The notes under the pieces are model-generated. The model saw nothing but the letters and a program-made list of their open reading frames with translations. It did no database searches and was not told the origin of the DNA. The position numbers and the translations under genes were made by a program. Positions 20,460 to 44,256 of a stretch of DNA of 63,442 bases are shown piece by piece (position 1 is the stretch's first letter; every line of letters starts with the position of its first letter). Location: positions 1-63,442 of IMG/VR virus record IMGVR_UViG_3300044641_000353, one strand, 5' to 3'. Source of the DNA: a virus. Taxonomy: Duplodnaviria; Caudoviricetes.

Positions 20460-20658
20460 GACCTACTACCTTTGCCGAGTGCCTAGTTACGACATTATTG
20501 TTATGTTTAACGAGAGGGACTACCGATACCAACGCGTAGTCGAGAGCCACCTGAACGTGCCTAACGAGGCAAACAACGTGGTGCTACTAGCGCAGGGTAC
20601 AAAGAAACAGATACGAATGTACTACGATTTAATGAAGGAGGATAACAATGTTAGCTAA
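20449..20658 (+). CDS. Hypothetical early protein
   Basis: AAGGAG RBS; ATG inside the palindrome. Confidence 0.7.
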   Translation: MLAETYYLCRVPSYDIIVMFNERDYRYQRVVESHLNVPNEANNVVLLAQGTKKQIRMYYDLMKEDNNVS

Positions 20659-20821
20659 ATTCCTAATGACAGGATGGAGTAACCGCTTTGGCTATTGGGT
20701 GACTGAGGTTGCCGAGGCTAAAGATATAAGCACCGCAAGGGAACGCTTCTGCCTGAAGTACCCCATGCTGAAGAATGTAAAAGCCCTGCGCCTACGCGCA
20801 CCCGCAGAACTAATGGAGTAA
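20648..20821 (+). CDS. 57-aa hypothetical early protein (not in ORF track)
   Basis: AAGGAGG RBS; ATG inside the palindrome; MLAKFLMTGWSNRFGYWVTEV... Confidence 0.7.
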   Translation: MLAKFLMTGWSNRFGYWVTEVAEAKDISTARERFCLKYPMLKNVKALRLRAPAELME

Positions 20822-20823
20822 TC

Positions 20824-21984: not shown

Positions 21985-22005
21985 TCAGACCCATGACGAA
22001 AGGAC

Positions 22006-22034
22006 TTGACTTTACCATAACATTGTGGTATAAT
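22006..22034 (+). promoter_or_regulatory. Sigma70 early promoter 3
   Basis: TTGACT-17bp-TATAAT, near-identical to promoter 2. Confidence 0.88.
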
Positions 22035-22170
22035 ATAAGCTGATGTGGGGTAGTTGTACCCATATCAGAGAAGTAGCAGTTGAAATCATTGTTAAACACC
22101 CGTGTATCTCACTTCATCAAAGAACTCGGGAACTCGCCTAACAATGTTAGGCACATCAGAAAGGTTAGAT

Positions 22171-23247
22171 ATGTCAGAGATCAAATTCGGTAAATCAATT
22201 ACCCTTAAACAAGCCGCGAACCTGATTCGCACCAATCCTACTACGCGCTTTCTCCTACAAGGTGAGCCGGGTATCGGCAAGTCTTCCCTATTGGAGAGTA
22301 TTGCTAACGGCTTGGGCTACGAGTACGCATACATAGACGTGCCGAACATGGACTTGGGCGACATTGCCATGCCTGTGATCGACCACGATACCAAGACCAC
22401 TAGGTATTACCCTAATGCTAGGTTCAAGATTCATGAAGGCAAACCCCTTGTCATCATGCTTGACGAATTTTCAAAGGGCGCAGACCCCGTGAAGAACATG
22501 CTTCACCCTATGCTAGAGAAGGCAAACCCTAGACTAGGTGACATTCCACTACCGACCGATGGAGACAGACAGACCATTGTCTTTCTTACTGGTAACCTTT
22601 CAACAGACGGCGTGGGCGATAACCTGAAAGCGCATAGCCGTAACCGACTGGTTCCCGTAACGATCAGCAAACCCGATGCCGAGCAGTGGATTGAGTGGGC
22701 TATTGGTAAAGGTATCGAGCCCGAGGTGATTGCGTGGGTCAACCGATTCCCTCATGCAATGGCTAGCTACACAGACGCAGGGCAAGGCGACAACCCCTAC
22801 ATCTTTAACCCTAAGAACTCTCAGAAGGCGTTCGTGTCTCCACGTTCTCTAGAAACTGCATCTAACATTGTTAGGTCACGCAAAGACAACGACCCTGAGA
22901 CTGTGATTGCGGCTTTGTCAGGTGCGGTGGGTGAGTCAGCCGCTCGGGATATGCAGGCATACATTGAGTTCTCAGATCAGTTGCCGACATGGGAGTCAAC
23001 GATCACGCATCCCAAGACAACGGCAATACCTACGTCAGCGGGTGCTTGTGCCATTGTGGTATTCGGTGCGATTGCTCGGGTAGATAAGACAACGATTGCC
23101 CCATTCATGGAGTACTTACAACGATTCGATGCAGAGTGGCAAGCGGTGTTCGCTATCAACATTGCCAAGACACCAAGCAAACAGAGCATTGCGTTTAGTT
23201 GCAAGGCGTTCGCTGATTGGGTGGCTAAGAACCATGACCTTCTCTAG
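22171..23247 (+). CDS. MoxR/dynein-related AAA+ ATPase
   Basis: Walker A GEPGIGKS, Walker B IMLDE, SPRS sensor 2; start reassigned to MSEIKF at 22171. Confidence 0.85.
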   Translation: MSEIKFGKSITLKQAANLIRTNPTTRFLLQGEPGIGKSSLLESIANGLGYEYAYIDVPNMDLGDIAMPVIDHDTKTTRYYPNARFKIHEGKPLVIMLDEFSKGADPVKNMLHPMLEKANPRLGDIPLPTDGDRQTIVFLTGNLSTDGVGDNLKAHSRNRLVPVTISKPDAEQWIEWAIGKGIEPEVIAWVNRFPHAMASYTDAGQGDNPYIFNPKNSQKAFVSPRSLETASNIVRSRKDNDPETVIAALSGAVGESAARDMQAYIEFSDQLPTWESTITHPKTTAIPTSAGACAIVVFGAIARVDKTTIAPFMEYLQRFDAEWQAVFAINIAKTPSKQSIAFSCKAFADWVAKNHDLL

Positions 23248-23482
23248 GATTGGTAACGCATTTGTGCGTAGGCAGACGACAGTAGAGTTGAGTGAGCATG
23301 ACCCAAAGTTTAGGTCACCCGCTCGACTTTACTACACAGGCAAGTATGAATTGGTTGACGCTAAGGATTATCCAAGTGCATTTAGGGAAACCCAAAGAGT
23401 TATATCAATACATGACACGTTTGAAGAGGCGAAGTTATTTGCCGACATGATTAACAAGCAACGACATTTAGAAGGAACCTAA
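23231..23482 (+). CDS. Hypothetical protein
   Basis: 3' part of ORF 23096..23482; the likely start is the internal Met of MTFSRIG (start coordinate approximate). Confidence 0.45.
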   Translation, partial: TMTFSRIGNAFVRRQTTVELSEHDPKFRSPARLYYTGKYELVDAKDYPSAFRETQRVISIHDTFEEAKLFADMINKQRHLEGT

Positions 23483-23484
23483 CA

Positions 23485-24675
23485 ATGTTAGAAGAACGTA
23501 AATTGCAGAAAGCCAAGATCACGCTCATGCGTAATCCTAAGTTCGCCTTACTCCAAGGTGTGATGATGGTTGGTCGTACTAGCGTAGCGGATGACGTACC
23601 CACTGCATGCACCAATGGCAGGGATGAGAAGTATGGGCGTAAGTTTGTGGGGATGCTGACCGATAAGGAACTGGCATTTGTTGTGGCACATGAGGTGTCG
23701 CACAAAATGTATCGGCATTTGACCACATGGCGTAAGTTACATGACGAGGATGCGAGCCGTGCCAACAGTGCTTGTGACTACGTTATTAACTACATGCTCC
23801 ATGAACTCGACCCCAACGAGGATGTGATTGCCATGCCTAGGTTTAAGGATGGGGCGAAGAAGGGTGAGCGCATGGGACTGTACGACCCACAGTACAAGGG
23901 CATGAACTCTAAGCAGATATTCGACTTACTCAAAGATGAACAAGGCGGGGGCGGTCAGGGTGGTGATGGGCTTGATGAGCATGATTGGGATGGTGCAAAA
24001 GGCATGACCGAGGAGGAGAAGAAAACCCTTGAGCGTGAGATCGACCAAGCTATTCGTCAGGGTGTCATGGCACATGAGAAGGCACATGGCAAAGGTGCGG
24101 GTGGTATCGGGCGTGAGATTGATGAACACTTGCAACCCAAAATCAACTGGCGTGAGGAACTACGTGAGTATGTGAAAGCTACATGCCACAACAAGGACAC
24201 ATCGTCATGGCGCAGGGTCAACCGCAGATACTTATCTAGCGGTACGTATATGCCGAGCATGATCGGTGAGAAGGTTGGACACATCGTAGTAGCCATAGAT
24301 ACATCGGGCTCCATCGGTGGGCGTGAGCTTGACGAATTCTTAGCCGAGGTGAAAGGCGTGGCAGAAGAAGTCAACCCCGAGATGGTGGACTTGATCTATT
24401 GGGATGGTGATGTAGCGGGGCATGAGAAGTATGAGGGTGCGGAAGTATCTAACATTGTTAGCTCGACCAAACCCAAGGGTGGTGGAGGCACTGACCCTAG
24501 TTGCGTATCTCAATACTTGCGTGACGAGGCTATCAAGCCCGAGTGCATCATCGTGTTGACCGATGGCTATGTACCCAACTGGGGTAGCGAATGGACTGCA
24601 CCGACTATGTGGGTAATCACAGGAGGCAACGATGCGGTTTCTGACAATGGCAGAACGATTCATATTCAAGATTAA
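23485..24675 (+). CDS. HExxH metallopeptidase-like plus VWA domain protein (DUF2201-like)
   Basis: HEVSH, MIDAS DTSGS, GGGGT, LTDG; paired with the AAA+ gene. Confidence 0.85.
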   Translation: MLEERKLQKAKITLMRNPKFALLQGVMMVGRTSVADDVPTACTNGRDEKYGRKFVGMLTDKELAFVVAHEVSHKMYRHLTTWRKLHDEDASRANSACDYVINYMLHELDPNEDVIAMPRFKDGAKKGERMGLYDPQYKGMNSKQIFDLLKDEQGGGGQGGDGLDEHDWDGAKGMTEEEKKTLEREIDQAIRQGVMAHEKAHGKGAGGIGREIDEHLQPKINWREELREYVKATCHNKDTSSWRRVNRRYLSSGTYMPSMIGEKVGHIVVAIDTSGSIGGRELDEFLAEVKGVAEEVNPEMVDLIYWDGDVAGHEKYEGAEVSNIVSSTKPKGGGGTDPSCVSQYLRDEAIKPECIIVLTDGYVPNWGSEWTAPTMWVITGGNDAVSDNGRTIHIQD

Positions 24676-24685
24676 GGGAGGCAAC

Positions 24686-24931
24686 ATGGTAATAGTAGAC
24701 ATTGGATACAAGAAGTACATCATGCCCAAAGAGAAAGCCATGCAGTTAGTGGAAGTCTTAGAGAGCGCAGAGATATACGAAGAGAAGTATTGGAGTGAGG
24801 ACAGGCGCAAAGAGTTGGGCATGACTGAGACGTACACCTACCATGTGTATGCGAACGAAGCCAACTTCAGTATGCAGATCATAGGCGACAGTAAATATCA
24901 AATGGCTAGATTAGCCGGTAAACCAATTTAA
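24686..24931 (+). CDS. Hypothetical protein
   Basis: Start reassigned to ATG 24686 after AAGGGAGG. Confidence 0.7.
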   Translation: MVIVDIGYKKYIMPKEKAMQLVEVLESAEIYEEKYWSEDRRKELGMTETYTYHVYANEANFSMQIIGDSKYQMARLAGKPI

Positions 24932-24941
24932 GGAGAATGAA

Positions 24942-25790
24942 ATGAGTATTAGTGCATCAGCAGTGTTAGTGGAATTGAACATCAGCGTGTGGCCTGCGTC
25001 AAAGCTAGACCGCGATACAACGGCACAAGTGAATACTGACGCATCAGCAGTCGTAGACGCAGCGCGTGTCCACAAGAACCTATTCGCAGGTACTAACTTG
25101 CGTAAAGAGATCGAGAACTTTGCCGCCAAGGTTAGGCTCTATCACAATCAGCGAACGCTACCATGGGCAGACAAGGGCGAGCGTATGTTGCCGACCGCCT
25201 TGTTTATGGAGTACAAGCAAACCATGAACGCATACGAGCAGACGTTCAATGCAATGTGTGGCTCATTCTTTCACGCATATCCTGAGCTAGTGAAGGATGC
25301 ACCTACGCACCTAGGCAAGATGCACAGAGCCGAGGACTATCCCGAGCTTGAGGATGTGAAGCTGAAGTTTGGGTTTCGTAGAACAGTCAAGCCTGTACCG
25401 GAGGCGGGTGACTTTCGCTTAGACATACCTGCGAATGACTTAGCCGAGATGCAAGCAGAGTTCAGCGCACAACAAGACAACAAGCTAGCTGACGCTATGC
25501 GTGAGCCATGGGAGCGGTTACATGAAATGCTAGTAGGCATGTCTAAGAAACTCGACGACACATCGGGTGGTAAGAAGCGATACCACGACACACTGGTGAG
25601 CAACCCGCTAGAGCTTTGCTCATTGCTTACTAAGATGAACATCACCAACGACCCCAAGTTGGAGGAAGCACGCAAGGAACTAGAGCTAACAATGTTAGGT
25701 ACTAACATAGAAGCAATCAAGGAAGACGAGCATCATCGCACCGAGGTGAAAGCCAAGGTAGATGCAATCATTAAAAAGTTTGAATGGTAA
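24942..25790 (+). CDS. Conserved helical phage protein (DUF3150-like)
   Basis: LVELNISVW...TLPW...LNITNDP-like pattern; AAGGAG RBS. Confidence 0.65.
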   Translation: MSISASAVLVELNISVWPASKLDRDTTAQVNTDASAVVDAARVHKNLFAGTNLRKEIENFAAKVRLYHNQRTLPWADKGERMLPTALFMEYKQTMNAYEQTFNAMCGSFFHAYPELVKDAPTHLGKMHRAEDYPELEDVKLKFGFRRTVKPVPEAGDFRLDIPANDLAEMQAEFSAQQDNKLADAMREPWERLHEMLVGMSKKLDDTSGGKKRYHDTLVSNPLELCSLLTKMNITNDPKLEEARKELELTMLGTNIEAIKEDEHHRTEVKAKVDAIIKKFEW

Positions 25791-25800
25791 GGAGTAGATC

Positions 25801-26688
25801 ATGGATGCAAGCACAGCAATGACATTGAGTAACGTCACCATTAGCGAGAAGCTATTGAATGGTAGGCGTAAGACCGACTTTGATTTCGTAGTGGAGAAAC
25901 CCCTGCACGAGATCATGTGGAAGGTCATCACCGAGAACCCATCATGGGAGTTCAAGGTACAGGAATACTATGGACAAGTTAAGAGTGAGACCATGGACAC
26001 ACGCCCACGGATCACAGTTTCTAAGTTCGCAGTATTCAAAGATGGAGAAGAGATTGGCAAGATCGACCGAGACTACCGCTACGATCAGGGTGGGCATGTG
26101 TTCTCTATCACTAGCAATGCGATCAGGAATGAGCGTGAGCGTATAAGTTCGTATCGCACTAAGGATGCTAAGAAAGCCCTAGCCGCTATCAAGAAAACAT
26201 TCAGTAACAAGAGTGTAGGCGAGCGTGTGAATGAAGCGTTGGCAGAAGCTGTTCGCGTTGTTGGTAGACAAGTTAGTCAAAAGCGCAGTAACCATGGGAG
26301 TGCTTTGCATAGCCTGATACCACTTATGAAAACATTTGCGTTCATTGAGAACAACGATGAGTTTAGGCAGTACGCAGTGAACAACGGACAAGCCCATCAG
26401 CTAGTGAAGTTGCGGGAAACGGAAGCCGAGATGCTTACTGTTACTGACATAGAAAGCAAGTTTAAATCAGACAAGGGTACGAGCCTAGTCTTGCTATCTA
26501 GTGGAAAGTACTTAGTTAAAACAGGTGACGATATACAACTTTACGATGATAATACGCTCCCACTTGACATGAGAGGTAAGTTGGGTATGTTGAAATTAGT
26601 AGAGCCTGAGCAGATGATTGAAGGTGTGGGTTGCCGAGCCACTACCGAGGTCTTTGTCTTACTTACCGCAGAGCGGGAACTGGCATAG
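25801..26688 (+). CDS. Hypothetical protein
   Basis: Long ORF with AAGGAG RBS. Confidence 0.8.
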   Translation: MDASTAMTLSNVTISEKLLNGRRKTDFDFVVEKPLHEIMWKVITENPSWEFKVQEYYGQVKSETMDTRPRITVSKFAVFKDGEEIGKIDRDYRYDQGGHVFSITSNAIRNERERISSYRTKDAKKALAAIKKTFSNKSVGERVNEALAEAVRVVGRQVSQKRSNHGSALHSLIPLMKTFAFIENNDEFRQYAVNNGQAHQLVKLRETEAEMLTVTDIESKFKSDKGTSLVLLSSGKYLVKTGDDIQLYDDNTLPLDMRGKLGMLKLVEPEQMIEGVGCRATTEVFVLLTAERELA

Positions 26689-26720
26689 TGAAACAGGCTA
26701 ACAATGTTAGGAGAATCTAA

Positions 26721-26888
26721 ATGAAAGACGAAATGAAATACCAATCCAAAGTAATCCCCTTGCGGGGTTACGACCACCCCAAATTTAAATGGGTTAACTC
26801 TGCACAAACCGATATACGTAGAACGTGGCGTAAAGCAAGACTACTTATTCGCTTAACCAATGGGGCCGCTTATGAAAGCCGTACTTGA
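26721..26888 (+). CDS. 55-aa hypothetical protein (not in ORF track)
   Basis: AGGAG RBS; MKDEMKYQSK...FKWVNSAQTDIRRTWRKAR. Confidence 0.65.
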   Translation: MKDEMKYQSKVIPLRGYDHPKFKWVNSAQTDIRRTWRKARLLIRLTNGAAYESRT

Positions 26889-27054
26889 GTTTCAGTATCC
26901 GGAAGACGAGTACAAGCTAGAGCATGCACTAAAGGGTACGCAGTACTACGACGCATTGTGTGAGATAGACATAATACTTGCCGCTCCGTATACCAAAGCA
27001 GACGCATACGGCAGGATTAAGAAAGTAATTTTAGAAGTATTGGGGGACACATGA
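26872..27054 (+). CDS. Hypothetical protein
   Basis: MKAVLEFQYPEDE; start reassigned. Confidence 0.65.
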   Translation: MKAVLEFQYPEDEYKLEHALKGTQYYDALCEIDIILAAPYTKADAYGRIKKVILEVLGDT

Positions 27055-27272
27055 GAGGCACTGGATTTGGAAATGTTCTTGCGGGCAACATTGCGGCTCT
27101 CAAAGGACAGAAAAGAAACGAAAAACGCATGAGCCAAAAATGGAAAATGTGTTGGAAATGCCAAAAAGACAAAAGCCCTAATGGTGGGTTTCTCCGAATA
27201 ACTGCGGGGTTACACAAATTTATTTGCAAGGATTGTATGGATGCTAAACAAAAGAAATTGGAGGATGTATGA
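27051..27272 (+). CDS. Small Zn-finger protein
   Basis: CWKC...CKDC. Confidence 0.65.
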   Translation: MRGTGFGNVLAGNIAALKGQKRNEKRMSQKWKMCWKCQKDKSPNGGFLRITAGLHKFICKDCMDAKQKKLEDV

Positions 27273-27445
27273 AAGAAGATGACGATGACATTCAGGAGTA
27301 CGTTAGCACGAAGCAAGTGAACGAGGTCTACGAGAAGATACGCAACAACACGCTAGAAGAAGTAGCGCAAGAGTTTGACAAGATGAAAGCCTTTGGTGAT
27401 ACGTCAGCATCCTTTGCAGTATACGTACGGGGGATGAAAAGATAA
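27269..27445 (+). CDS. 58-aa hypothetical protein (not in ORF track)
   Basis: GGAGG RBS, ATGA overlap; MKEDDDDIQEY...RNNTLEEVA. Confidence 0.7.
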   Translation: MKEDDDDIQEYVSTKQVNEVYEKIRNNTLEEVAQEFDKMKAFGDTSASFAVYVRGMKR

Positions 27446-27705
27446 TGCCAAGACCAAAACCGCCTGAGCCACTTAAAGGTCGCAACATGCGAATGTCTGA
27501 TATTGAGTGGCTTATGTTTATAGAATTAGGAGGAGCCGAATGGCTAAGAAAACATGTTAAGCAAAAAGCAAAGTACCCAAAAGGATACTACGAAGCCCTT
27601 GCCAAACAAGGTGCTGACTCAAGAAGAGCTAATGGCGTGGTGGCCGTTCACACGACTAGACCCGAAGCGATTCCCCAAGCTAAAGAAACCACAACAGGAT
27701 TATGA
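27445..27705 (+). CDS. Ribbon-helix-helix-like DNA-binding protein
   Basis: MPRPK...RNMRMSD...LGGAEWLRK. Confidence 0.55.
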   Translation: MPRPKPPEPLKGRNMRMSDIEWLMFIELGGAEWLRKHVKQKAKYPKGYYEALAKQGADSRRANGVVAVHTTRPEAIPQAKETTTGL

Positions 27706-27721
27706 GGAGGCAACATTTTGA
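27554..27721 (+). CDS. Overlapping 55-aa ORF containing WWPFTRLDPK
   Basis: Open from ATG 27554 to TGA 27721; its stop overlaps the next TTG start. Confidence 0.45.
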   Translation: MLSKKQSTQKDTTKPLPNKVLTQEELMAWWPFTRLDPKRFPKLKKPQQDYEEATF

Positions 27722-27924
27722 CCACAGGAATTGAGTATTTGAAAGTAGAGAAGAAACGCAAGGGGCGGGGGCTTGGTAAGAAACCCGCATTAACTTGCAC
27801 GAGCTTGCGACTGCCGAGAGAGGTGATGGATTATTTCGACACCAACCATCGAATGTCAAAGCAAGCCAAGATGAGAGAAGTTCTTACCGAGTACGTTAAC
27901 AACCAAACAGGAAATAAACCATGA
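27718..27924 (+). CDS. BrnA-antitoxin-like RHH protein
   Basis: GRG...TSLRLPREVMDYF...QAKMREVL; GAGGAGG RBS, TTG start. Confidence 0.6.
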   Translation: MTTGIEYLKVEKKRKGRGLGKKPALTCTSLRLPREVMDYFDTNHRMSKQAKMREVLTEYVNNQTGNKP

Positions 27925-28532
27925 CAATCAAAAAAGTAACCAAAGCCGCACAAGTGCGTAACTACGTAGCCTCTAACCCCAAAGCCAAACCACAAGAGGT
28001 GGCAAACGCTGTCGGTGTTGGACTTCAGTACGTATACACAGTGCTGTGGAACGCAAAGAAGAAAGCCGGAGTTAAAAAGAAGGCTACGCTTACACTGAAA
28101 CGAGAGGGCGCACCGAGAAAAGGCGTGACGCTTGACCTGATTAAAGCAACTAACGAAGCGTTAAAGAAAGAGTTTGAAGCTAAAAGAACGCAAGAGCAGG
28201 TAGACAAGTATTGGAAAGCCGTAGGCGAAGTTCAAAAAGCAGGGCTATCAGCCGCCCGTGTTGCTGAACTTACTGCACAAGCGGGTAAACCAAAACTGCG
28301 TATGCAGGGTAGCGAGCCCACGCAGATCGAAATGTTCGACCCAGTAGACCATCCTGCCCATTACAAAGTAGGTGGAATCGAGACCATTGACTTCATCGAA
28401 GCAAAGAAGCTCGGGTACAACATCGGCAACGTGATTAAGTATCTAACTCGTGCCGACTACAAAGGCAACAAGCTCGAAGACTTGCGTAAAGCTCAGTGGT
28501 ATCTGACTCGTGAGATCAGCATGCTGAAGTAA
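27921..28532 (+). CDS. DUF3310-domain protein with N-terminal HTH-like region
   Basis: DPVDHPAHY...GNVIKYLTRA...EDLRKAQWYL. Confidence 0.8.
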   Translation: MTIKKVTKAAQVRNYVASNPKAKPQEVANAVGVGLQYVYTVLWNAKKKAGVKKKATLTLKREGAPRKGVTLDLIKATNEALKKEFEAKRTQEQVDKYWKAVGEVQKAGLSAARVAELTAQAGKPKLRMQGSEPTQIEMFDPVDHPAHYKVGGIETIDFIEAKKLGYNIGNVIKYLTRADYKGNKLEDLRKAQWYLTREISMLK

Positions 28533-28562
28533 AACCAACCTAACAATGTTAGGGTAATTCCT

Positions 28563-28597: not shown

Positions 28598-28625
28598 TTG
28601 ACAAAGTCAAGCGGTGTGCTATATT
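28598..28625 (+). promoter_or_regulatory. Replication-operon promoter with TTGAC-N3-GTCAA palindrome
   Basis: TTGACA-16bp-TATATT, extended -10. Confidence 0.7.
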
Positions 28626-31936: not shown

Positions 31937-32219
31937 AAAAGAATACCAACAGCAAGTTGCTCGTGGTGAGTTGCCTGACCGGATGGAGCGTCAGCGTGCC
32001 CGTAATGAGTACGACAAAAAGAACCCCGACAAGAACAACGATGGCACTGCCGATTCTAGGGAAGGCAAAGATATTGCCCACGTCAAGGCGCTGAGCAAGG
32101 GTGGCTCCAATAAAGATGGCACGAAGGTGCAATCCCCAACGGCCAACCGCTCGTTCAAGCGTAACTCACAACACAAGTTGGTGACTGAGACAAGCGCCAA
32201 GGAACGTAAGAAGAAATGA
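31905..32219 (+). CDS. HNH-like endonuclease
   Basis: MPYVNKPRPYKKEY...DIAHVKALSKGGSN...NRS; start reassigned to 31905. Confidence 0.7.
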   Translation: MPYVNKPRPYKKEYQQQVARGELPDRMERQRARNEYDKKNPDKNNDGTADSREGKDIAHVKALSKGGSNKDGTKVQSPTANRSFKRNSQHKLVTETSAKERKKK

Positions 32220-33601
32220 AACTATCAGAGTATGACTGGCCGCGACCACACGGCTTCACCCCGTTCGATCATCAGAAGACCACCGCTGAGTTTCTAATTA
32301 GCAACCGCAAGAGCTTTTGCTTTAACGAGCAGGGCACAGGCAAGACCGCATCAGTGATTTGGGCGGTGGATTATTTGATGAAAGTTGGAGTAATTAGCCG
32401 AGTGCTTATTGTTTGTCCATTGTCGGTGATGAAGGCCGCATGGCAAGAAGATCTGTTTAAGTTTGCTCTGCATCGCACAGTAGCTGTAGCCCACGGTGGA
32501 AGAGAGAAGCGCAAAGAAATCATTAACGGCCTTGCTGAGTTTGTCATCATTAACTTTGATGGCGTTGAGATCGTTAAGAAAGAAATCATAGCAGGTGGGT
32601 TTGATCTTATTGTGATTGATGAAGCGTCTGCGTACAAGAACGCACAGACCGACAGATGGAGAACCATGCGGGACATTACCAAAGTGGTTAAGGGTCTATG
32701 GATGTTGACGGGTACGCCAGCGGCTCAGTCGCCTGTGGATGCTTACGGATTGGCAAAGCTTGTGAACCCCCAAGGTGTGTCACCTTTCTTTGGTCAGTTC
32801 CGCGACACAGTCATGCACAAGATCAGTGACTATCGTTGGATACCTAAGCCCACTGCGGAAGCAACTGTACACAAGATACTTCAGCCTGCTATTAGGTTTG
32901 AGAAAGCCGACTGCCTTGACTTGCCCGAGGTTACAGCAGTTGACAGAGAAGCTCCGCTTTCGCCACAGCAGATGAAGTACTACAACATACTCAAGAAGCA
33001 GATGTTAATTGAGGCAGCAGGAGAAGAGATTACAGCTATCAACGCCGCAGTAAAGCTCAACAAGCTCTTGCAAATCTCAGGTGGCGCAGTGTATTCAGAC
33101 ACGGGCGAAGTGATTGAGTTTGATGTGTCTGATCGCCTCAAAGTAATTAAGGAAGTGATTGATGAGTCAAGCCACAAGGTGCTCGTGTTTGTTCCGTTCA
33201 CGCACACGATTGAGTTGTTAACCAAATACTTAATTAAGAACGGCATTACATGCGATGTCATTAACGGGGCTGTGTCTGCTAACAGACGCGCAGAGATTGT
33301 CAAAGAGTTTCAGACACGGGATAACCCTAAAGTGCTTGTCATTCAACCGCAAGCGGCATCACACGGGTTAACACTGACTGCGGCTAACACTGTTATTTGG
33401 TACGCTCCCACCTCCAGTGTCGAAACGTATCTGCAAGCAAACGCACGCATCGACAGGCCCGGCCAACGCAATCCAATGACTATCGTACACATACACGGAA
33501 GCCCAACGGAGAAGCGTTTATATGCTTTGTTGCGTAACAACGTAGCGAACCATAACAAAATAATTGATTTGTATAGAGAAGAATTTATAGACGCCTCTTG
33601 A
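32216..33601 (+). CDS. SNF2-family helicase
   Basis: GTGKT, DEAS, LTGTP, QANARIDRPGQ. Confidence 0.92.
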   Translation: MKLSEYDWPRPHGFTPFDHQKTTAEFLISNRKSFCFNEQGTGKTASVIWAVDYLMKVGVISRVLIVCPLSVMKAAWQEDLFKFALHRTVAVAHGGREKRKEIINGLAEFVIINFDGVEIVKKEIIAGGFDLIVIDEASAYKNAQTDRWRTMRDITKVVKGLWMLTGTPAAQSPVDAYGLAKLVNPQGVSPFFGQFRDTVMHKISDYRWIPKPTAEATVHKILQPAIRFEKADCLDLPEVTAVDREAPLSPQQMKYYNILKKQMLIEAAGEEITAINAAVKLNKLLQISGGAVYSDTGEVIEFDVSDRLKVIKEVIDESSHKVLVFVPFTHTIELLTKYLIKNGITCDVINGAVSANRRAEIVKEFQTRDNPKVLVIQPQAASHGLTLTAANTVIWYAPTSSVETYLQANARIDRPGQRNPMTIVHIHGSPTEKRLYALLRNNVANHNKIIDLYREEFIDAS

Positions 33602-33625
33602 CAATGTCAAAAGTGGTGTTATATT
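33598..33625 (+). promoter_or_regulatory. Promoter with TTGACAATGTCAA palindrome
   Basis: TTGACA-16bp-TATATT, same architecture as 28598. Confidence 0.72.
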
Positions 33626-33630
33626 AGAGT

Positions 33631-33725
33631 TGTGTCGCAGTGATGGGTAACGGGTTAGCGCCGTTGCAGACGTTAAATGTTTTGAAACAATCACACTGCT
33701 TTATGTGAACTGTCACTGCGACACA
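33631..33725 (+). ncRNA. Candidate cloverleaf / multi-way junction RNA
   Basis: 16-bp closing stem (33631-46 with 33710-25) enclosing three hairpins; starts right after the promoter. Confidence 0.7.
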
Positions 33726-33746
33726 TTTAACAATTAGGAGAATCAG

Positions 33747-34169
33747 ATGGAAGAAGTTGAAGATAAAGTCACCTCCGTAGACTTGGACAGATTGACCTCA
33801 ATCTATATCAAGATACGCGACAAGCGGGCGGCAAACAAGAAAGTGTTTGAAGCCGAAGATCAAGACCTCGAAGAGCAGATGAAAGTGTTAGCACAAGAGA
33901 TGCTCGACGTATGCAAAGACATGAATGCCGACAGCATTCGCACCCCACATGGCACGATCATGCGTTCAATTAAGTCACGGTATTGGACAAACGATTGGGA
34001 TTCAATCTACGGTTTCATTGAAGAGACCGGAGCATTTGGCCTGTTAGAGAAAAGACTTCATCAAACAAACATGAAAGACTTTCTCGCTGAGAATCCAGAC
34101 CTTTACCCCAAGGGGCTAAATGTCGAAAGTGAATACACCGTGGTAGTTAGACGTTCTAAAGAAAGCTGA
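33747..34169 (+). CDS. Conserved phage replication-region protein
   Basis: YIKIRD...SIRT-x-HGT...DWD...LLEKRLHQ. Confidence 0.75.
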   Translation: MEEVEDKVTSVDLDRLTSIYIKIRDKRAANKKVFEAEDQDLEEQMKVLAQEMLDVCKDMNADSIRTPHGTIMRSIKSRYWTNDWDSIYGFIEETGAFGLLEKRLHQTNMKDFLAENPDLYPKGLNVESEYTVVVRRSKES

Positions 34170-34171
34170 AA

Positions 34172-35062
34172 ATGAGTAACATTACAATCCTCAACGAAGA
34201 CCTCCCCGAATTCTTGCAAACCGCAGGAGTTAGCGACCTTACACGACAACTCGCTGGTCGTACCGGAGTCAAACGCATTGTGCCTAAGAATGGCATTTTC
34301 CGTAAGACAGTCGGCGGCGAAGAGATGGGCAAGGTCAAAGGCAACGTGAATGCCGTCATCGTTAACGCATCCCCTGCTGTTGGTCGTATCTTCTACGCTA
34401 AACAGTGGAGCCCTGATGCTGAGCCGACTGCACCTGATTGCTTCTCTAATGATGGGCGCGCACCCGATGCAGGCTCAGCTAACCCACAAGCAGATCGTTG
34501 CGATAGTTGCGGGCAGAATATCAAAGGCTCAGGCCAAGGTAACTCTAAGGCTTGCCGCTATTCACGCCGCATTGCGCTTGTGTTGGAAGAAGACTTCGGT
34601 ACATCACTTGAAGGTTCAGTCTACCAAATGAACTTGGCGTCCAAGTCTTTGTTTGGTGAAAGCGTAGGTGATAACACGCACACGTTTGAAAACTACTCTA
34701 AGTACTTGTCCAACAACGGCAAGAGCTTGGACTACGTTGTGACGCAGATTAGTTTCAACGAAGACAACGACAACCAGTCTGTGTTGTTTACGCCGACTAA
34801 GTACATTAACAAGACACAGTACGCTGTGACTAGCAAAGTGGCTAACACTCCTGAAGTGCTGAAGATGGTAGTTATGACACCATACCAAGCTGACATGTCC
34901 GGCAAGACCGCTAAGTTGGAAGCACCTGCCCCCAAAGCAGAAGCCCCTGCTAAAGTTGATCCAATCGACGAGCCAATCAAGCGCCCCGCTAAGGCCGCGC
35001 CTGCACCTGTGACCAAGAAGGATTTGGATTCCGTGGTGAAGGCTTGGAGTGAAGAGGAGTAA
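34172..35062 (+). CDS. Putative ssDNA-binding/recombination protein
   Basis: PDCFSNDG...CDSC...GSG...KACR; acidic Trp-containing C-terminal tip; replication cluster. Confidence 0.6.
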   Translation: MSNITILNEDLPEFLQTAGVSDLTRQLAGRTGVKRIVPKNGIFRKTVGGEEMGKVKGNVNAVIVNASPAVGRIFYAKQWSPDAEPTAPDCFSNDGRAPDAGSANPQADRCDSCGQNIKGSGQGNSKACRYSRRIALVLEEDFGTSLEGSVYQMNLASKSLFGESVGDNTHTFENYSKYLSNNGKSLDYVVTQISFNEDNDNQSVLFTPTKYINKTQYAVTSKVANTPEVLKMVVMTPYQADMSGKTAKLEAPAPKAEAPAKVDPIDEPIKRPAKAAPAPVTKKDLDSVVKAWSEEE

Positions 35063-38342: not shown

Positions 38343-38416
38343 GTCGGGAAGCAGTTGCCGACGGTTTATTTTGGTTGCCCTCCTTGTACCCCCGGCTAAT
38401 CCCCGGGGGTTTTTTT
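38343..38416 (+). ncRNA. Candidate stand-alone sRNA with anti-Shine-Dalgarno seed
   Basis: Promoter TTGCGA-17bp-TAAACT (38308-38336), 5' hairpin, unpaired GGTTGCCCTCCTTG, terminator. Confidence 0.6.
38389..38416 (+). terminator. Intrinsic terminator at the convergence of the two genome arms
   Basis: CCCCCGG...CCGGGGG followed by T7. Confidence 0.85.
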
Positions 38417-41400
38417 CATTTCGCCGCTTCTTTTTCAAGCTTCTCACGAGAGGGCTCAAGCAACTGCTCCAAGTATGGATAGAACTTCTTGTCCACATCA
38501 AACCCACGATCAGACTTGGCGCGCTTAGCTATACGCGCTTGAACTAATTTGCTTAAGTCACCACCATCAACCCTAGCTTGCGGGTTACGCGCACCGAACG
38601 CAATTAGTTTTTCCAGTGCGTCATCAAACGCTTCGTCATCGCCTCGTGTAGCTTCTAGGTCAACACGATTAACAAGCTTACCTTTCTCAATCACTACTTT
38701 TGCTTTAAGTGCATTGGCTTTAAAGTTAGCTTCTTGCGCGGAAGCCAAACCTGTAGTCCGTGCACCGCCTGCTTGAGCAAGTAATTGCGCTTTTGTGAAC
38801 TCCTCGGGCTCTCTAATAACTGCGCCTGTACTTGTTGTAGCGCCTTCTTGACTATATCGAACAGCAGTCAATGGCTGGCGCAGGGCGGCAGGGAGAAGTC
38901 TTTCCAAGCCTTGCATGGTTTTACCCTCTTGCAGTAGACGGATAGCTGAAGGTATTTGATTTAACGCCAAACTAGCAAACGGCCCCATTAACGACAGCGC
39001 GTATTCTTGCACTGTATCTTCAAGAGCGCGTTGTTCTTTTAACTCAGGCATCCACATGTTGTTCATTGACAAGCTATTGGACATGGCGTAGCCCGAGATA
39101 GTGTCAATTAAACCAGAATCTAGGATGTCACTAATCTTATATCCACCAATCTGGGCTTCACCAAAGAACTCAGGAATAAATACACTGCGACCCCAGAATT
39201 CAAGATCGCGCTCTTCTAACGGGTCTTCATCGTCTTCGTCACGCATTGCATTAATAATACCTTGCACAGCACCCATAGCCGCGCTGATACCGGGGATACC
39301 AACATAACCAGCAAGCAAGCCTGACATAAACAAAGTACCAAAGAACTGAGTAGCCGCTTCTTTCTTAGCCGCCGCATCCATACCGGCCATCATGCGGTAA
39401 GCGTTACGAGCCAAGTATGTGGTTACGAAAGCAGGGAAAGTCTTAAATTGCAGCAGCGTACGACCAAGCGGGCCACGCATGACACGCGCACGATTTTGCT
39501 CAGAGAAGTTACCAAGGGCATCGTAAGTATCTTTAACTGCTTGATCGACAGCGTCGTCGAAAGACATGCCTTCTTTGCGGCTCAAACGGAATGAAGTCAT
39601 AAACATGACTTCGCGGTTTAAACGCTCAACGTGGTGGAACAAACCACCCATCATGTTAGTCGCAGATTTCCATGCGCCAGAGTACTTAGTTGACGGAGTG
39701 TTGCGACGATCCATTAAGTCATAGGCCATCGTGATCTCACTGACACCACGATCTGTCATTGCTTCAATAGCCAGTTGCTCTTCCTCGTTCATCTTAACGC
39801 GACGAGAGTTAGCTAAAGACAACTGCTTAAGGTTTCCATCTTTATCAATAACACCGACGTCGTTAAAGATCAACATCATTTTGCCCATCTCAGCGGCTAC
39901 AGCGGCAGGGCTATGGCGAGACATAAGGACAGGTGCGCCAAATATAGGCAATGAGGAGAACTGAACAACAGCGGTCTTAACCGAAGTCATGAAGTATAGG
40001 AACGCCGACTTGTTTGCAAAGTTAGCCGCACTTTGCGCTACAGAATCTACAGCAGGTGGGTAGACTTCTAACTGAACACGGTTACCAAGTTCATCGACTA
40101 GCATCTCTAGCTTGTCTTTCTCAGGATTGCCCTTGAGACTTTCTTTGGCAGCGTCAACTTCACGAAGCATTGTCGGGCCATATTTCAGACGCGCAAGCTG
40201 GTTAGCCATATTAGTGGATGACGTGATAAAGTTACGCAGCGCGTCACCTGAGAAGCCAGCAGTACCCTTGCGGTGAATAAACTGACGACGGAAACTCTGC
40301 TCCGGCATCGTAGTCAAATACAACTGATAGATTTGATCCTTGAGTGTCTCGGCATCAGTCTCACTAATACCATCACCAATTAGCTCAAAGATTTGTTTAA
40401 GCAGAGGCGCGGTGTCGTTAGTTGTGCTCTTATCGCGCAAGCCCTTTAAATCATTACCGGTTTCAATATCCTCGTCGGCTTTCATCTCAGCCATACTGCG
40501 GGTATCACCGTCTTTTTGCAGATCACGCACTCGCTGACGCATAAACATCTCGCGGTCGACTACGCTTTCAAACATGTAGAACTCTTTCTTCTTACCAGAG
40601 CCCACACGCAACCAGTAATCACCATAGCGCATCAATGGGAAGTATGGAGACAGACCCTTTGCTGTCTCGTACATCTTCTTAATCTCAGCCATTAACTTAC
40701 CCTTGGGTGTGTCGGGGTCGGCGGCATCACCGGGGATCTTCATTGCGTCAATGCGGTTGTTTAACAGCAAGCGGTACAAGTCAAAGTTAGACTTGTAGTA
40801 ATCACGTACATCAACGTAGATTTCCTTGGCCTTATCGCTCAGGCCATCCCACATCTTGTTAAGCGTAGCGTCTTTTCTATTTGTAGCAGGGTCAATGCTC
40901 TTGTCTGTGGCGTAGTGCATCACAGCAGATAGCTCAGCAAGTTCATTCTTTTGGCCCTTGACTAGCTTGCCGTACATACCGGGCTGGACGTTTAACCATT
41001 TGGTTACTACATCTGAAGCACCACCAAGCATCTTCATGCGCATAGCACCCATGTCTTGCATAGCACGCCATGTTTTATCCATGTGCGTAATACCAAGGTT
41101 AGTGCCCCACTCAACTAAAACGTTAGTCTGGATAGCAGGCATCAGCGCTTTTAACTTAACAACGTTGAGCGCACTCCACATAGACTCAAGGGTATCTAAG
41201 AAAATCTGCGGGTCGCGTAGCTTAACCATTGTGTCAATGCCGTCGACTACCTCTTGCGCTTCCTTGCTGCGCAGGATTTTCTTTTCAGCAGCGGTAATCT
41301 TTTTAGCGTTGGCTTTGGCCTTAGCTTTAGCCGCAGAAACTTTCTCACCACGGCCTTCACGGATTGCGTTAGCTTTGTCAGCCTTGGCAATCATCTTCAT

Positions 41401-44256
41401 TGTTGGTGTTAGCTTAGCCGTCAGAATCTCATCAGTAACAAGAATTAAGTCAGACAGGGCGTTGATGGAGTCGAGCCCCATGCCAAGTAATTCACGGATT
41501 GCGTCTACAAAACGGTTAAACAGACCTGTGTCTTCTTCAAAACCATAAGCCCCCATCAGGAACTTCTGGAAGTAGGGGTCGGTCATGCCATAGGAAACAA
41601 ACTCGTGCGGGTTGCTAAACACACCAGACACGGTCTTTAGGTAGTAAATATCTGTGGGCAGCTCGCCCAAGTTAGACAGTCGGTTGTATTCATCCTTTGC
41701 GTTGTTCATCACGTCGATGAGCTTGTTGTACGCACGAGTTAGTTTGGCATCACCTGAAAACCCACGTTGAACGGCGAGGAGAGCAAGCTCAAGCTTTTGC
41801 TGCGTTGCAGCATGAAGTAACTCGTGCAGTACTGTGGTGTTATTAATACCTTGGAAGTCACCTGCGCTAGAGCCGCGCACGTAGATAATCTTTTCACCAG
41901 TAGTTGTGTTCTCAAAATACACACCACGGGCACGGGAGTTGTCATTGCCCCAAGCCTCTTGATGGCGAGACAGTTGTTCTGGTAGGGGGTCGGTCTCTTC
42001 AACTACAACAAATTTAACGCCGTTGACCAGCCCACGAAGGCGTTTGGCCAAGAATTTTTGCATGCCAGTTCCTGTTTTAACAACTTGATTAACGGCCTGC
42101 GCAGCGTTCTTAGCTTTCTTAAACCCTTCGTCTGCGGCTTCGACTTCTTCGTTACTTGCAGAGCTTTTGTTTACGCGCTCTTGAGATTTGTACTTGCGTC
42201 CAGCCTGCACATCGTCGTAGTCTCTTTGAGAAATCTTTGTGCGATCAGCAAGTGCGGCTTTAACCCGTTTACCCAAAGCAGTGCCACGGTGCTTAGTTTC
42301 CAAGTCCATCATTGCGTTGATGGTGTCTCGTTTAAGCGCACGCTTCTCGTCTTGGGCAGAAGATAACTCTAGGTCGTCGGCAAACTTAGTTTCGTCAACA
42401 GGTTTGGCGGCTTCTTCTAACTGGGTTTGGAGCTTGGGTAAAGCACGCTCGCCCTTCATGTACTCAGCACGGCCTTCGGTACGGGCTTTCTCTTTCTCCG
42501 CACGCTTTTCTTCAGTGATGTCAGCCTTTGGCCGACCACGTTGTTTGCCGGTTACTGCTCCGGCTGCTGGTGCTTCTTGTCCTTCTTCTTTTGTTTGGAC
42601 GGCTTCAGGGGTCTCAGTGCCAAGTTCGGCTCCTTTAGTTTCTACGGGGGTTTTTACGGGGGTTGGCTCTACTGCAACGGGTTCAACTCTTTCTCTTTCA
42701 ACAGGCTCTGTAACATCCGCTCTAGCAGGAACCACTCCATCTCGTTCAGCTTCTCCAACTCCTGTGGTGGCGGGAACGTTGTCGGCTGGTTGTGCAAGTA
42801 CCGCAGGGCTCTCTCTACCTGCTTCACTGATAGGTTCTGTAACATCTTTTGCTCCCTCTTCAATAGGCGCATTTGCTTCCTCAATCTCGTTACGCGCTAG
42901 TGTAGCGGCGTCTTCGGGCATGTAGCCCCGCTTCTTGTATTTTGCTACAAGTGCTTCAAGCTCTGGGGAGGGCGCAGGTTGTACCTCTGGAGTTACTTCC
43001 GTAGGAGCAGCTTCCGATACCACCGTAGGGGGCGCAGGTTGTACCTCTGCCGCAGGTTGTTCTTCTACCGCAGGCTTCATGCGTTTGGCTAGGGCATCTT
43101 TAAGTGCTTGGCGCTTGTCAACTGGGGCTGTCGGGGCTAAGGGAGTTTCTTCTTCTACCGTCCATGGGTCTAAAGTAGGTTCAATCTTTTCTGCGGTTGG
43201 TTTTGGTTCTTCTCTACGACGCCCTTTAACGGCTGTAGCACCAACGCCCATAGTTGCACCCGTTACAAGGCCCATACCAGCCGCTTCAGGAACACCTTCT
43301 AAAATAGGCTTATCTAAAGCGTAGTTTGCCCACATCTGTTCTTGCGCAGACTGCGGCATCTCTTCAAATACACCTTCGGTTACACCAGCGGCAGTAGCAC
43401 GCACGGCAAAATCTTTAACCGACTTTGAACCACCACCTGTAGTTGCTTTACTAGCCAGTAGCGTGTCAATATCATCAATGCCTAATTTATTGGCTAACCT
43501 ACCACCAGCCACACCAAATGCCGCCGTACCAGCACCGGAACCAACGGCAGATAAAGCTTGTTTGCCAGTTAATAATTTGTCTTCGGTTTGTTGGCGTGTT
43601 TGCTCAGCAGCACTACCAGCACCAATTAAACCTTCACCCGCAGCGGCGGCTAAATATGGGGAAACTTTTGGCGCGGCTTTTAAAACCCCTCTAGCAATAC
43701 CTGCTCCGCCAAGCATTGGTGCTATTGATTCGCCAACCGTTGTAGCAATAGTGCTGGGGTATTGAAGGGCTTTGCCAATGGTTGGTAAGAAACCTTTTGT
43801 TTCTTTTACTTGGCGATTTGCGTATTGTTGTGCCTCAGACAAATACGTATCAAGTATTTCTTTGGCTTCGTTAGGTTTGTAACCCGCTTGCTCAAGAAGT
43901 TTACCAACACGGCCAAGCGTGGGAATGTCAGCTAAACCAACAAAAGCTTCAGGTAAACCAATAGCACTTTTAAGAAAAGTAATACCGGCATCGAGGGTTG
44001 TACCGCCAATAGTTCTGTCGTAACCCTTTGCTTCCCTTGCCGCAACTTGAGCACGGTACTCATCCGCAGTCATGGAGTTAGGATTACGCACCGGATTTGT
44101 GCCTACAAAACGCTCCATCTGCTGGGGCGTCATTTGTTGCGTAGGGGCAACGGCAGGGGCGGGGGCAATAGGAGTTTCAGACGCGACTTCCCAGCCAGAA
44201 CTATCGGCTGCACCGACTGGAGTTTCGGAAACAACCGACCATTCGTCTTTTGCCAT
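38416..44256 (-). CDS. Large polyvalent internal-virion/ejection protein (HExxH peptidase plus PLxRFG-like domain)
   Basis: 1946 aa; TVLHELLHAAT; YFPLMRYGDY; last gene of the late operon. Confidence 0.75.
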   Translation of the reverse strand: MAKDEWSVVSETPVGAADSSGWEVASETPIAPAPAVAPTQQMTPQQMERFVGTNPVRNPNSMTADEYRAQVAAREAKGYDRTIGGTTLDAGITFLKSAIGLPEAFVGLADIPTLGRVGKLLEQAGYKPNEAKEILDTYLSEAQQYANRQVKETKGFLPTIGKALQYPSTIATTVGESIAPMLGGAGIARGVLKAAPKVSPYLAAAAGEGLIGAGSAAEQTRQQTEDKLLTGKQALSAVGSGAGTAAFGVAGGRLANKLGIDDIDTLLASKATTGGGSKSVKDFAVRATAAGVTEGVFEEMPQSAQEQMWANYALDKPILEGVPEAAGMGLVTGATMGVGATAVKGRRREEPKPTAEKIEPTLDPWTVEEETPLAPTAPVDKRQALKDALAKRMKPAVEEQPAAEVQPAPPTVVSEAAPTEVTPEVQPAPSPELEALVAKYKKRGYMPEDAATLARNEIEEANAPIEEGAKDVTEPISEAGRESPAVLAQPADNVPATTGVGEAERDGVVPARADVTEPVERERVEPVAVEPTPVKTPVETKGAELGTETPEAVQTKEEGQEAPAAGAVTGKQRGRPKADITEEKRAEKEKARTEGRAEYMKGERALPKLQTQLEEAAKPVDETKFADDLELSSAQDEKRALKRDTINAMMDLETKHRGTALGKRVKAALADRTKISQRDYDDVQAGRKYKSQERVNKSSASNEEVEAADEGFKKAKNAAQAVNQVVKTGTGMQKFLAKRLRGLVNGVKFVVVEETDPLPEQLSRHQEAWGNDNSRARGVYFENTTTGEKIIYVRGSSAGDFQGINNTTVLHELLHAATQQKLELALLAVQRGFSGDAKLTRAYNKLIDVMNNAKDEYNRLSNLGELPTDIYYLKTVSGVFSNPHEFVSYGMTDPYFQKFLMGAYGFEEDTGLFNRFVDAIRELLGMGLDSINALSDLILVTDEILTAKLTPTMKMIAKADKANAIREGRGEKVSAAKAKAKANAKKITAAEKKILRSKEAQEVVDGIDTMVKLRDPQIFLDTLESMWSALNVVKLKALMPAIQTNVLVEWGTNLGITHMDKTWRAMQDMGAMRMKMLGGASDVVTKWLNVQPGMYGKLVKGQKNELAELSAVMHYATDKSIDPATNRKDATLNKMWDGLSDKAKEIYVDVRDYYKSNFDLYRLLLNNRIDAMKIPGDAADPDTPKGKLMAEIKKMYETAKGLSPYFPLMRYGDYWLRVGSGKKKEFYMFESVVDREMFMRQRVRDLQKDGDTRSMAEMKADEDIETGNDLKGLRDKSTTNDTAPLLKQIFELIGDGISETDAETLKDQIYQLYLTTMPEQSFRRQFIHRKGTAGFSGDALRNFITSSTNMANQLARLKYGPTMLREVDAAKESLKGNPEKDKLEMLVDELGNRVQLEVYPPAVDSVAQSAANFANKSAFLYFMTSVKTAVVQFSSLPIFGAPVLMSRHSPAAVAAEMGKMMLIFNDVGVIDKDGNLKQLSLANSRRVKMNEEEQLAIEAMTDRGVSEITMAYDLMDRRNTPSTKYSGAWKSATNMMGGLFHHVERLNREVMFMTSFRLSRKEGMSFDDAVDQAVKDTYDALGNFSEQNRARVMRGPLGRTLLQFKTFPAFVTTYLARNAYRMMAGMDAAAKKEAATQFFGTLFMSGLLAGYVGIPGISAAMGAVQGIINAMRDEDDEDPLEERDLEFWGRSVFIPEFFGEAQIGGYKISDILDSGLIDTISGYAMSNSLSMNNMWMPELKEQRALEDTVQEYALSLMGPFASLALNQIPSAIRLLQEGKTMQGLERLLPAALRQPLTAVRYSQEGATTSTGAVIREPEEFTKAQLLAQAGGARTTGLASAQEANFKANALKAKVVIEKGKLVNRVDLEATRGDDEAFDDALEKLIAFGARNPQARVDGGDLSKLVQARIAKRAKSDRGFDVDKKFYPYLEQLLEPSREKLEKEAAK

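Follow-up and report, generated by a model that had tools for sequence, protein, structure and literature searches.

The 63,442-bp window analysed here, a complete phage record with direct terminal repeats (IMG/VR record IMGVR_UViG_3300044641_000353), contains a structured RNA element at 33631–33725. It lies between an SNF2-type helicase gene (32216–33601) and a four-gene operon that encodes, in order, a 140-aa protein, a 296-aa protein, an 82-aa helix-turn-helix (HTH) protein and a 946-aa DUF927 primase. The element is apparently one copy of a widespread, uncatalogued folded phage RNA – a four-way junction whose helices change on both sides from phage to phage and whose two loop blocks, GGGUUAGCGCC and CACUGCUUYAUGUG, stay almost constant. 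The evidence supports a portable, self-contained RNA domain that is needed at most once per phage, wherever it is transcribed. The function that we favour, with about as much confidence as doubt, is that of an autonomous accessory phage RNA acting via its two invariant loops on a conserved partner.

The fold and its conservation at the primase operon

RNAfold folds the 95 nt of the element into a four-way junction with three arms and a 16-bp closing stem (P1) that has two G-U pairs. Two of the arms are the hairpins GUAACGG[GUUAGCG]CCGUUGC (P2) and UCACA[CUGCUUUA]UGUGA (P4); the closing stem and both of these hairpins had already been proposed in an earlier, sequence-only reading of the window. 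The minimum free energy (MFE) is -41.0 kcal/mol, compared to -24.29 ± 2.84 kcal/mol for 200 shuffled sequences (z -5.88), none of which was as stable. The reverse strand is less stable (-33.5 kcal/mol, z -4.33). Adding the flanks does not change the fold, and the AGGAG and ATG behind the element are single-stranded. The third arm (P3) is the variable part of the family; the small hairpin UGUU-UUGA-AACA that had been drawn here is present in the sequence but lies outside the MFE structure, which pairs AGACGU with AUGUUU in its place. P4 has 5 bp in the MFE register, versus 3 bp (CAC/GUG) in the register of the family. The P2 and P4 loops were correctly described as able to pair: AGCG and UGCU can form 4 bp, one of them G-U.

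The -10 hexamer TATATT ends at 33625 and the element starts 5 nt further (about 6 nt had been estimated), a position that would put the start of transcription within the first 1–3 nt of P1. Both the promoter and the start are assigned from consensus, in a phage whose host is uncultured. The AGGAG is at 33736–33740, 10 nt past the end of the element as had been stated, and the ATG is at 33747. Of the earlier interpretation, what is borne out is that the transcript opens with a discrete RNA structure, and this structure is under selection. The features are listed in Table 1.

Table 1. Features of the element and its immediate flanks in the window
Feature	Position	Strand	Basis and variation
Sigma70-type promoter, TTGACA-16-TATATT, extended -10 TG	33598–33625	+	11/12 consensus matches; -35 within palindrome TTGACAATGTCAA (33598–33610)
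P1, 5' strand, UGUGUCGCAGUGAUGG	33631–33646	+	RNAfold; changes on both sides in 7/16 pairs (window lineage) and 16/16 pairs (family)
P2 hairpin, 7-bp stem, 7-nt loop GUUAGCG	33647–33667	+	4/7 pairs covary in lineage, 6/7 in family
Invariant block GGGUUAGCGCC in P2	33652–33662	+	
P3 region, variable arm	33668–33693	+	Weakly structured in window; length and sequence vary
P4, CAC/GUG stem, 8-nt loop UGCUUUAU	33694–33707	+	Block CACUGCUUYAUGUG invariant
Junction J4/1, AA	33708–33709	+	Mostly A, AA or AG across family
P1, 3' strand, CUGUCACUGCGACACA	33710–33725	+	RNAfold and covariation
Unpaired A/U-rich linker UUUAACAAUU, AGGAG (33736–33740) and ATG (33747) of 140-aa gene	33726–33749	+	

At least 597 relatives of the 140-aa protein are found in IMG/VR, and the best 80 loci were analysed. 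In 70 of these 80 loci the element is present, flanked by the same promoter and ribosome-binding site. In seven it is absent and the promoter is joined almost directly to the ribosome-binding site, and three (L051, L058 and L077) have only a stump, a short hairpin that occupies the same site and consists of the outer bases of P1. The alignment of this lineage contains 46 distinct variants, the window and 45 others; three further distinct variants with the element (L023, L067 and L074) were dropped by a length filter owing to an internal TTGAC. RNAalifold on these variants gave a P1 of 16 bp, a P2 of 7 bp and a P4 of 3 bp, and 11 of the 26 pairs were changed on both sides – covariation among homologues upstream of the gene at 33747 had been suggested as a check on the structure, and it is present. 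In total, 99.1% of the cells were paired, versus 92.5% in shuffled alignments (0/500), and 77 cells were doubly changed, versus 14.6 (0/500). When partner columns were slid as a control, 19–45% were paired. Both blocks are invariant in the lineage, and what separates P2 from P4 differs among the variants in both length and sequence.

In some variants P3 can pair with the region from the 3' end of P1 to the ATG. This duplex has z < -2 in 10 of the 46 variants (L037, L029, L061, L032, L040, L070, L079, L068, L078 and L012). Nine of the ten carry a tract resembling an anti-Shine-Dalgarno (anti-SD) sequence, such as CCUCCUAAU, whose complement is the AUUAGGAG ribosome-binding site; the duplexes reach -19 kcal/mol. 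In the tenth, L012, pairing is with the linker only, as it is in the window, where the best duplex is -7.4 kcal/mol (z -1.5), there is no SD pairing and the AGGAG is not covered. The same anti-SD-like tract occurs at L086, with no SD behind it.

No known RNA family was recognised in the element. Rfam 15 gave no match at gathering scores across the whole window, and none to a ribozyme, riboswitch, ROOL or GOLLD family for the element. A cmscan of 33400–33900 at E<=10, also among the checks suggested earlier, gave four chance matches only, with no C4 and no tRNA; the best, to a group I intron, scored 16.3 bits where the cut-off is 50. A blastn search of 33400–34200 against cultured phage records found nothing, and tblastn with the 140-aa protein found in cultured phages only matches of 25–29% identity, in Rhizobium, Acinetobacter and Pseudomonas phages. 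The accessible parts of the literature retrieved with the text of the conserved blocks or by topic do not describe the fold.

Two other identities were tried and rejected. tRNAs have a 7-bp acceptor stem and D- and T-loops that follow a consensus. ARAGORN found no tRNA genes in the window, P1 has 16 bp, and the loops GUUAGCG and UGCUUUAU are unlike the T- and D-loop consensus, in agreement with the earlier statement that it lacks this consensus. The other is a 21-codon open reading frame (ORF) at 33643–33708 (MGNGLAPLQTLNVLKQSHCFM), which spans both conserved blocks. The spacing of the blocks is spread over the three frames (52/49/45 among 146 unique cores), so the frame is not kept and the ORF is fortuitous. 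The U/C of CACUGCUUYAUGUG, the only family-variable position in the second block, is a synonymous third codon position in this ORF.

Distribution of the family in phages and bacteria

The core GGGUUAGCGCC ... CACUGCUUYAUGUG was found in at least 120 further viral stretches and in 13 stretches of one-genome-per-species bacterial contigs, most of them Burkholderiales (Variovorax, Curvibacter, Achromobacter, Undibacterium and Burkholderiaceae metagenome-assembled genomes (MAGs)). The pattern scan required both invariant blocks, so these numbers under-sample the breadth of the family and the variability of its loops. Among those listed, all of the individual MFE folds have a closing helix (ca. 8 to 22 bp), a P2 whose loop is unchanged, and the hairpin with the CAC/GUG stem, and most have a variable arm. 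The unit is ca. 90–105 nt long.

A covariance model made from the lineage alignment had 104 matches in 90 sources, of which five were reverse-strand echoes or weak partial matches. The window has exactly one match (95.6 bits, E 2.8e-24, full model), which it has by construction, being in the seed; independent members from other contexts score 30–66 bits. In the alignment of the 104 matches, 93.3% of cells were paired, versus 63.6% when shuffled, and 23 of the 26 pairs were changed on both sides. The covariation score was 0.535 versus 0.127 (0/500), and slid controls were 30–40% paired. Within the 99 plus-strand full matches that are left without these five poor rows, there were 151 G-U cells and 37 A-C/C-A cells; this excess shows that a plus-strand RNA, not a DNA cruciform, is under selection. 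The P2 loop is constant in 98 of the 99, the exception being L204:2942–3034 (GCUAGCG). P4 is CCC/GGG at L209:3805–3904, where one P2 closing pair is also flipped, and CGC/GCG at L168:4416–4504. Because the middle pair has changed from A-U to C-G or G-C in these two divergent members, P4 is taken to be a real 3-bp helix with an 8-nt loop, and this register is favoured over the 5-bp one of the window's MFE structure. The members at L209, L168 and L204 just named all fall outside the pattern used for the scan.

A few of the bacterial stretches are unusual. The element and ca. 350 nt of flank are identical in L203, L205 and L206, from an Aeriscardovia MAG, Vreelandella rituensis and a Clostridia MAG (sheep colon), and identity across such unrelated assemblies suggests either contamination common to all three or a mobile element that has spread very recently. 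The minus strand of L209, from Achromobacter dolens, has tandem copies at 3710–3800 and 3805–3904, the second of which is altered in a compensatory way in P4 and in a P2 closing pair. Chromosome 2 of Variovorax paradoxus has three copies, two of them divergent, ca. 1 kb apart.

The element is present once in the window and once in each of five other near-complete genomes (5/5). The large terminases of four of these are 66, 56, 39 and 37% identical to that of the window, and the fifth is unmatched. In genome G002, the SNF2 helicase and each of the four operon genes have homologues (30–58% identity), but there is no gap between the helicase gene and the 140-aa gene, the stop of the one overlapping the start of the other, and the genome's sole copy of the element is at 58484–58580 on the other strand, beside the terminase region. 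In G001 the copy is at 4206–4292, in an RNA island. On a tree of the 140-aa protein, the absence of the element requires five changes, at least four of which are forced by well-supported branches. The loci L010 and L011, without and with the element, encode identical downstream proteins. Empty alleles have a different short leader and show no clean deletion. The element was not found elsewhere in the records of five relatives that lack it, all of them fragments that are 7–35% complete and hence uninformative. None of 149 other genomes sampled from the order of G011 matched, the only two matches being genomes already known, which argues that the element is not a host gene.

The context of the element was scored for 118 unique viral instances, with a heuristic limit of 260 nt to the gene start. 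32 of these precede a gene of the 140-aa family, six a terminase-small-subunit-like gene, five a Cro-like HTH gene, four a winged-helix-like gene and two a glutaredoxin-like gene (judged from protein sequence), while eight precede three unnamed gene clusters and 15 precede singleton genes. The other 46 have no gene start within 260 nt. In a first pass, one copy each was located ahead of a primase homologue and of an HTH homologue, and one behind a homologue of the 296-aa protein.

A strict sigma70-type promoter ends 3–10 nt before P1 in 58 of 157 unique instances (6 nt in 44), versus 16 of 3140 random positions, as judged by a rough classifier of promoters and contexts that misplaced the P1 ends in several window-type loci, missed some evident promoters and included plain U-rich linkers before an SD in its U-run class. 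By reading, six loci (L211, L097, L121, L129, L146 and L149) have a -10 box, a gap of 6–7 nt and the fold, with a U-run and non-coding DNA, or the following promoter, behind it. These copies can be read as stand-alone small-RNA units.

The fold is also found in non-coding islands adjoining tRNA genes (L162, L185 and L159), and among other long hairpins closed by ACGCAUGGGGAYUG...CAGUCCCCAGCCGU, a stem that is the fold's own P1 in L092, L096, L138 and L139. Non-coding RNA islands in related phages include L104:5090–5530, L210:1650–2700 and L227 (G001):4100–4850. They contain several ACGCAUGGGGAYUG...CAGUCCCCAGCCGU hairpins with differing apical parts, some with T-arm-like loops, as well as a small RNA that has a promoter and a terminator of its own (GUUGCYGU...GCAAC...GCCGUUUAC...GUAAACGGCUUUUUU), followed by 300–450 nt of partly conserved non-coding sequence. 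Rfam found only tRNAs on the neighbouring islands (16 loci), and nothing at E<=1 in L210:1300–3300. Clustering of the ORFs around 133 loci, which was noisy as it included overlapping frames, gave no RNA-related family.

Possible functions of the RNA

In the window, the element would be the 5'-terminal domain of the mRNA of the replication/primase operon, with the transcript starting at the first bases of P1. The helices would be a scaffold that displays the loops GGUUAGCG (P2) and UGCUUYAU (P4). The two invariant loops probably dock, AGCG with UGCU, and would thereby form the working surface. This surface would bind a partner conserved across hosts, most likely a host protein or RNA machine, with the RNA as decoy, sponge or cofactor; as the loops are invariant in phages that share little else, the partner is probably host-conserved and not phage-encoded. 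The RNA of the window may act while it is still part of the mRNA, or once released by cleavage in the A/U-rich linker UUUAACAAUU, and its paired 5' end would shield the 5' end of the mRNA as a side effect. It would not be a sensor for the gene behind it. That the element is single-copy, positionally mobile and dispensable points to an accessory role in the contest between phage and host, not to housekeeping. The excisable regulatory RNA of the sequence-only reading agrees with this in being self-contained, as the promoter-to-U-run units at other loci are, and it loses support where it is an antisense RNA of the C4/CI type.

Several observations weigh against this proposal. The six complete or near-complete genomes share virion proteins only, in an all-against-all comparison, so that a phage-encoded partner is not indicated and a host partner is presumed. 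Docking of the loops is conjectural, both of them being invariant and hence silent in covariation. About half of the instances lie just upstream of a gene, where a cis effect on transcription or on the life of the mRNA is possible. Many of the 58 promoter-proximal instances come from the lineage of the window and are not mutually independent, and the counts from the 104-match alignment lean towards structure, the alignment having been fitted to the model. Of 15 sequencing runs with small word shares, all available as contigs, four metatranscriptomes were compared with the window; their contigs cover parts of 33134–33200 and 33804–35000 and none covers 33201–33803, which is uninformative on expression.

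A more far-reaching form of the accessory-RNA proposal is possible, with a likelihood well short of even. The family could be a new class of small RNA (ca. 90–105 nt, one per genome) whose mutually docking loops capture or reprogram a conserved machine or a defence protein of Burkholderiales-type hosts, as a decoy, an anti-defence RNA or a transcription hijacker, or it could be a new class of self-cleaving ribozyme; in either case it would be one module among several in undescribed phage RNA islands. Invariant loops on freely covarying helices are the signature behind the discovery of riboswitches, ribozymes and RNA-protein machines. This family is abundant, its covariation is unusually clean, and it is nearly confined to phages and prophages, and it matches no Rfam family. 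Natural pairs of alleles with and without the element, and cultured strains that bear prophages (Undibacterium, Variovorax, Curvibacter and Achromobacter), make its function directly testable. The fold also flags the larger non-coding RNA islands of the same phages, which are described in no database.

Some known phage RNAs are similar in outline. The pRNA of phi29 builds the packaging-motor ring in protein-primed phages. It is a small phage RNA from an early promoter, with a multi-helix junction and two loops that can pair over 4 nt. However, the loops of pRNA covary between phages whereas those of the element are invariant, and the window phage has an ordinary large terminase and portal. ROOL and GOLLD are optional structured orphan RNAs in non-coding islands, often near tRNAs, that are gained and lost unit by unit; the element has no Rfam match to them and is a unit of ca. 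90–105 nt with another architecture. The non-coding RNA arrays of UG27 share these traits of ROOL and GOLLD (preprint 10.64898/2026.09.22.753630). In contrast to UG27 and retrons, no reverse transcriptase (PF00078) was found in any of the five element-bearing genomes searched (the window and four near-complete relatives), a search in which control genomes gave matches. Fremin et al. (2023, PMC10690425) catalogued 10,006 candidate structured RNAs, objects of the same kind and from the same data source, IMG/VR. The part of the catalogue that was available mentions neither a helicase/primase context nor this fold, and the element may be an unnamed entry.

Of the explanations other than an accessory RNA, a cis-acting element for processive antitermination or against Rho is unlikely. 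Like HK022 put or lambda/rrn nut, the fold or its loop UGCUUUA, which presumably resembles boxA, would bind RNA polymerase or Nus factors and carry the polymerase through the operon or the RNA island. The put and nut elements are promoter-proximal structured RNAs at the head of phage or untranslated operons, and a conserved host partner is expected for them; their hallmarks are the two-hairpin architecture of put, or boxA/boxB sequence to which RNA polymerase or NusB-NusE binds. The element is likewise promoter-proximal, is on the same strand as the operon and often heads long untranslated islands and tRNA clusters, and invariant loops would be expected if the partner were the conserved transcription machinery of the host. 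However, its four-way junction on a closing helix of 16 bp sets it apart from put and nut, a U-run forms the end of some copies, and at several loci P1 itself is followed by a U-run and a new promoter; at some loci a hairpin comes directly behind the element. A terminator to be passed inside the window's operon is doubtful: between 33747 and 38159 there are only weak hairpin-plus-T sites, at 34632 and at 37604, and the strong one, at 38388, closes the operon. A nearly identical twin promoter at 28598 drives the polymerase operon through an ordinary short leader with no structured RNA. Furthermore, the element is found inside islands behind other hairpins, and close relatives do without it.

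It is rather improbable that the element is only a 5'-terminal module for stabilisation or processing, in which P1 would block 5'-end-dependent decay or offer a 16-bp site for RNase III. P1 begins at the inferred transcription start, and three loci (L051, L058 and L077) keep only the outer-P1 hairpin, both as such a module would have it. This would leave unexplained the 25 invariant loop nucleotides in phages whose terminases are 37–66% identical or unmatched, as well as the gene-less units and the internal positions in RNA islands.

There is a small chance that the fold is an undescribed self-cleaving ribozyme in which the two loops dock as the active site. The four-way-junction form of the hairpin ribozyme has two loops that dock to form its active site, and a scattered, optional distribution is common for small ribozymes. 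By analogy, the invariant nucleotides on freely varying helices and the scattered, optional occurrence in phages, including beside tRNAs, would suit a ribozyme. The conserved bases are in hairpin loops, though, and neither at a junction nor in an internal loop, nothing in the fold stands out as a candidate site of cleavage, and there is no Rfam match to a ribozyme (hammerhead, twister, twister-sister, pistol, hatchet, HDV-like and hairpin families were considered).

Control of the 140-aa gene and the primase operon by a riboswitch or translational switch, in which a ligand or protein would alter the pairing of P3 with the ribosome-binding site, is very doubtful. The place of the element in the 5' leader and the 10 of 46 variants with strong P3 duplexes, most of them through tracts like CCUCCUAAU, are what such a switch would lead one to expect, and a cis-switch had been one suggestion of the sequence-only reading. 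Against it, the AGGAG of the window is unpaired in the MFE structure and uncovered by the weak P3 duplex, and the same type of P3 occurs at L086 with no SD-plus-start pattern within ca. 40 nt. The genes served have no common theme, and for the 46 of 118 instances without a near gene there is none to switch. The suggestion also sits badly with the G002 copy near the terminase and with the identical proteins downstream of L010 and L011, and no Rfam riboswitch class matches.

Highly improbable is a processed antisense RNA of the C4/CI type, with loops that pair with the phage's own transcripts, including CUAAC palindromes. Kinship with these RNAs had been proposed earlier. C4 of phages P1 and P7 and CI of P4 are immunity RNAs that RNase P cuts from an operon leader. 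They are small multi-arm RNAs with conserved loops in the leader of their own operon, and the cloverleaf-like shape of the element, its place in an operon leader and the 13 CTAACAWTGTTAG palindromes in the 18.6–28.6 kb block of the window are all reminiscent of this. The kinship is nevertheless not supported: no Rfam family is matched at E<=10, including the curated C4 model, and the targets of the loops in the window are not above chance. The complement GCGCUAACC has 12 matches versus 14.3 expected and CAUAAAGCAG has 6 versus 6.0, and the only exact matches are the element itself. The fold occurs away from operons too, and its loops are identical in unrelated phages, which phage-specific antisense pairing does not need. 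The proposed pairing of the GUUAG loop with the CUAAC palindrome is not supported either; the palindrome is absent from 5/5 other near-complete genomes with the same loop.

Least credible of all is an element that acts as DNA (a replication origin, a cruciform or a miniature inverted-repeat transposon whose terminal repeats are 13 bp long) or as a short coding ORF. In its favour are a perfect inverted repeat at the ends and a presence/absence polymorphism, both transposon-like, and the ORF through both conserved blocks. Against it, the end repeats are not conserved but covary, G-U cells outnumber A-C cells, the empty sites show a different short leader and no clean excision, and the block spacing is spread over three frames. 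Covariation that is asymmetric between the strands already largely refutes it.

Other features of the window

Upstream (5') of the SNF2-type helicase gene are genes for a family-A DNA polymerase and a PD-(D/E)XK nuclease. On the strand opposite to the operon are the virion genes, including those for the large terminase and the portal. Also on the minus strand, at 38416–44256, is a gene for a 1946-aa protein whose C-terminal part is matched by DarB-like antirestriction PHROG families (E 3.7e-80). It adjoins a gene for a 2031-aa protein without a family match.

The palindrome CTAACAWTGTTAG is found in 13 copies in the window, versus 0.09 expected, all of them in the plus-strand early/middle block at 18664–28552 (for example 18664–18676 and 28540–28552). 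It could be a 5–6-bp hairpin as RNA, or an operator as DNA.

The twin near-consensus promoters at 28598–28625 and 33598–33625 each have the -35 hexamer inside the palindrome TTGACAAWGTCAA. The same arrangement of a palindrome in the promoter is found before the fold at L090, L114, L153, L157 and L181, which encode distant homologues of the 140-aa protein. The palindrome TTGACAAWGTCAA is a possible operator for the 82-aa HTH protein of the operon.

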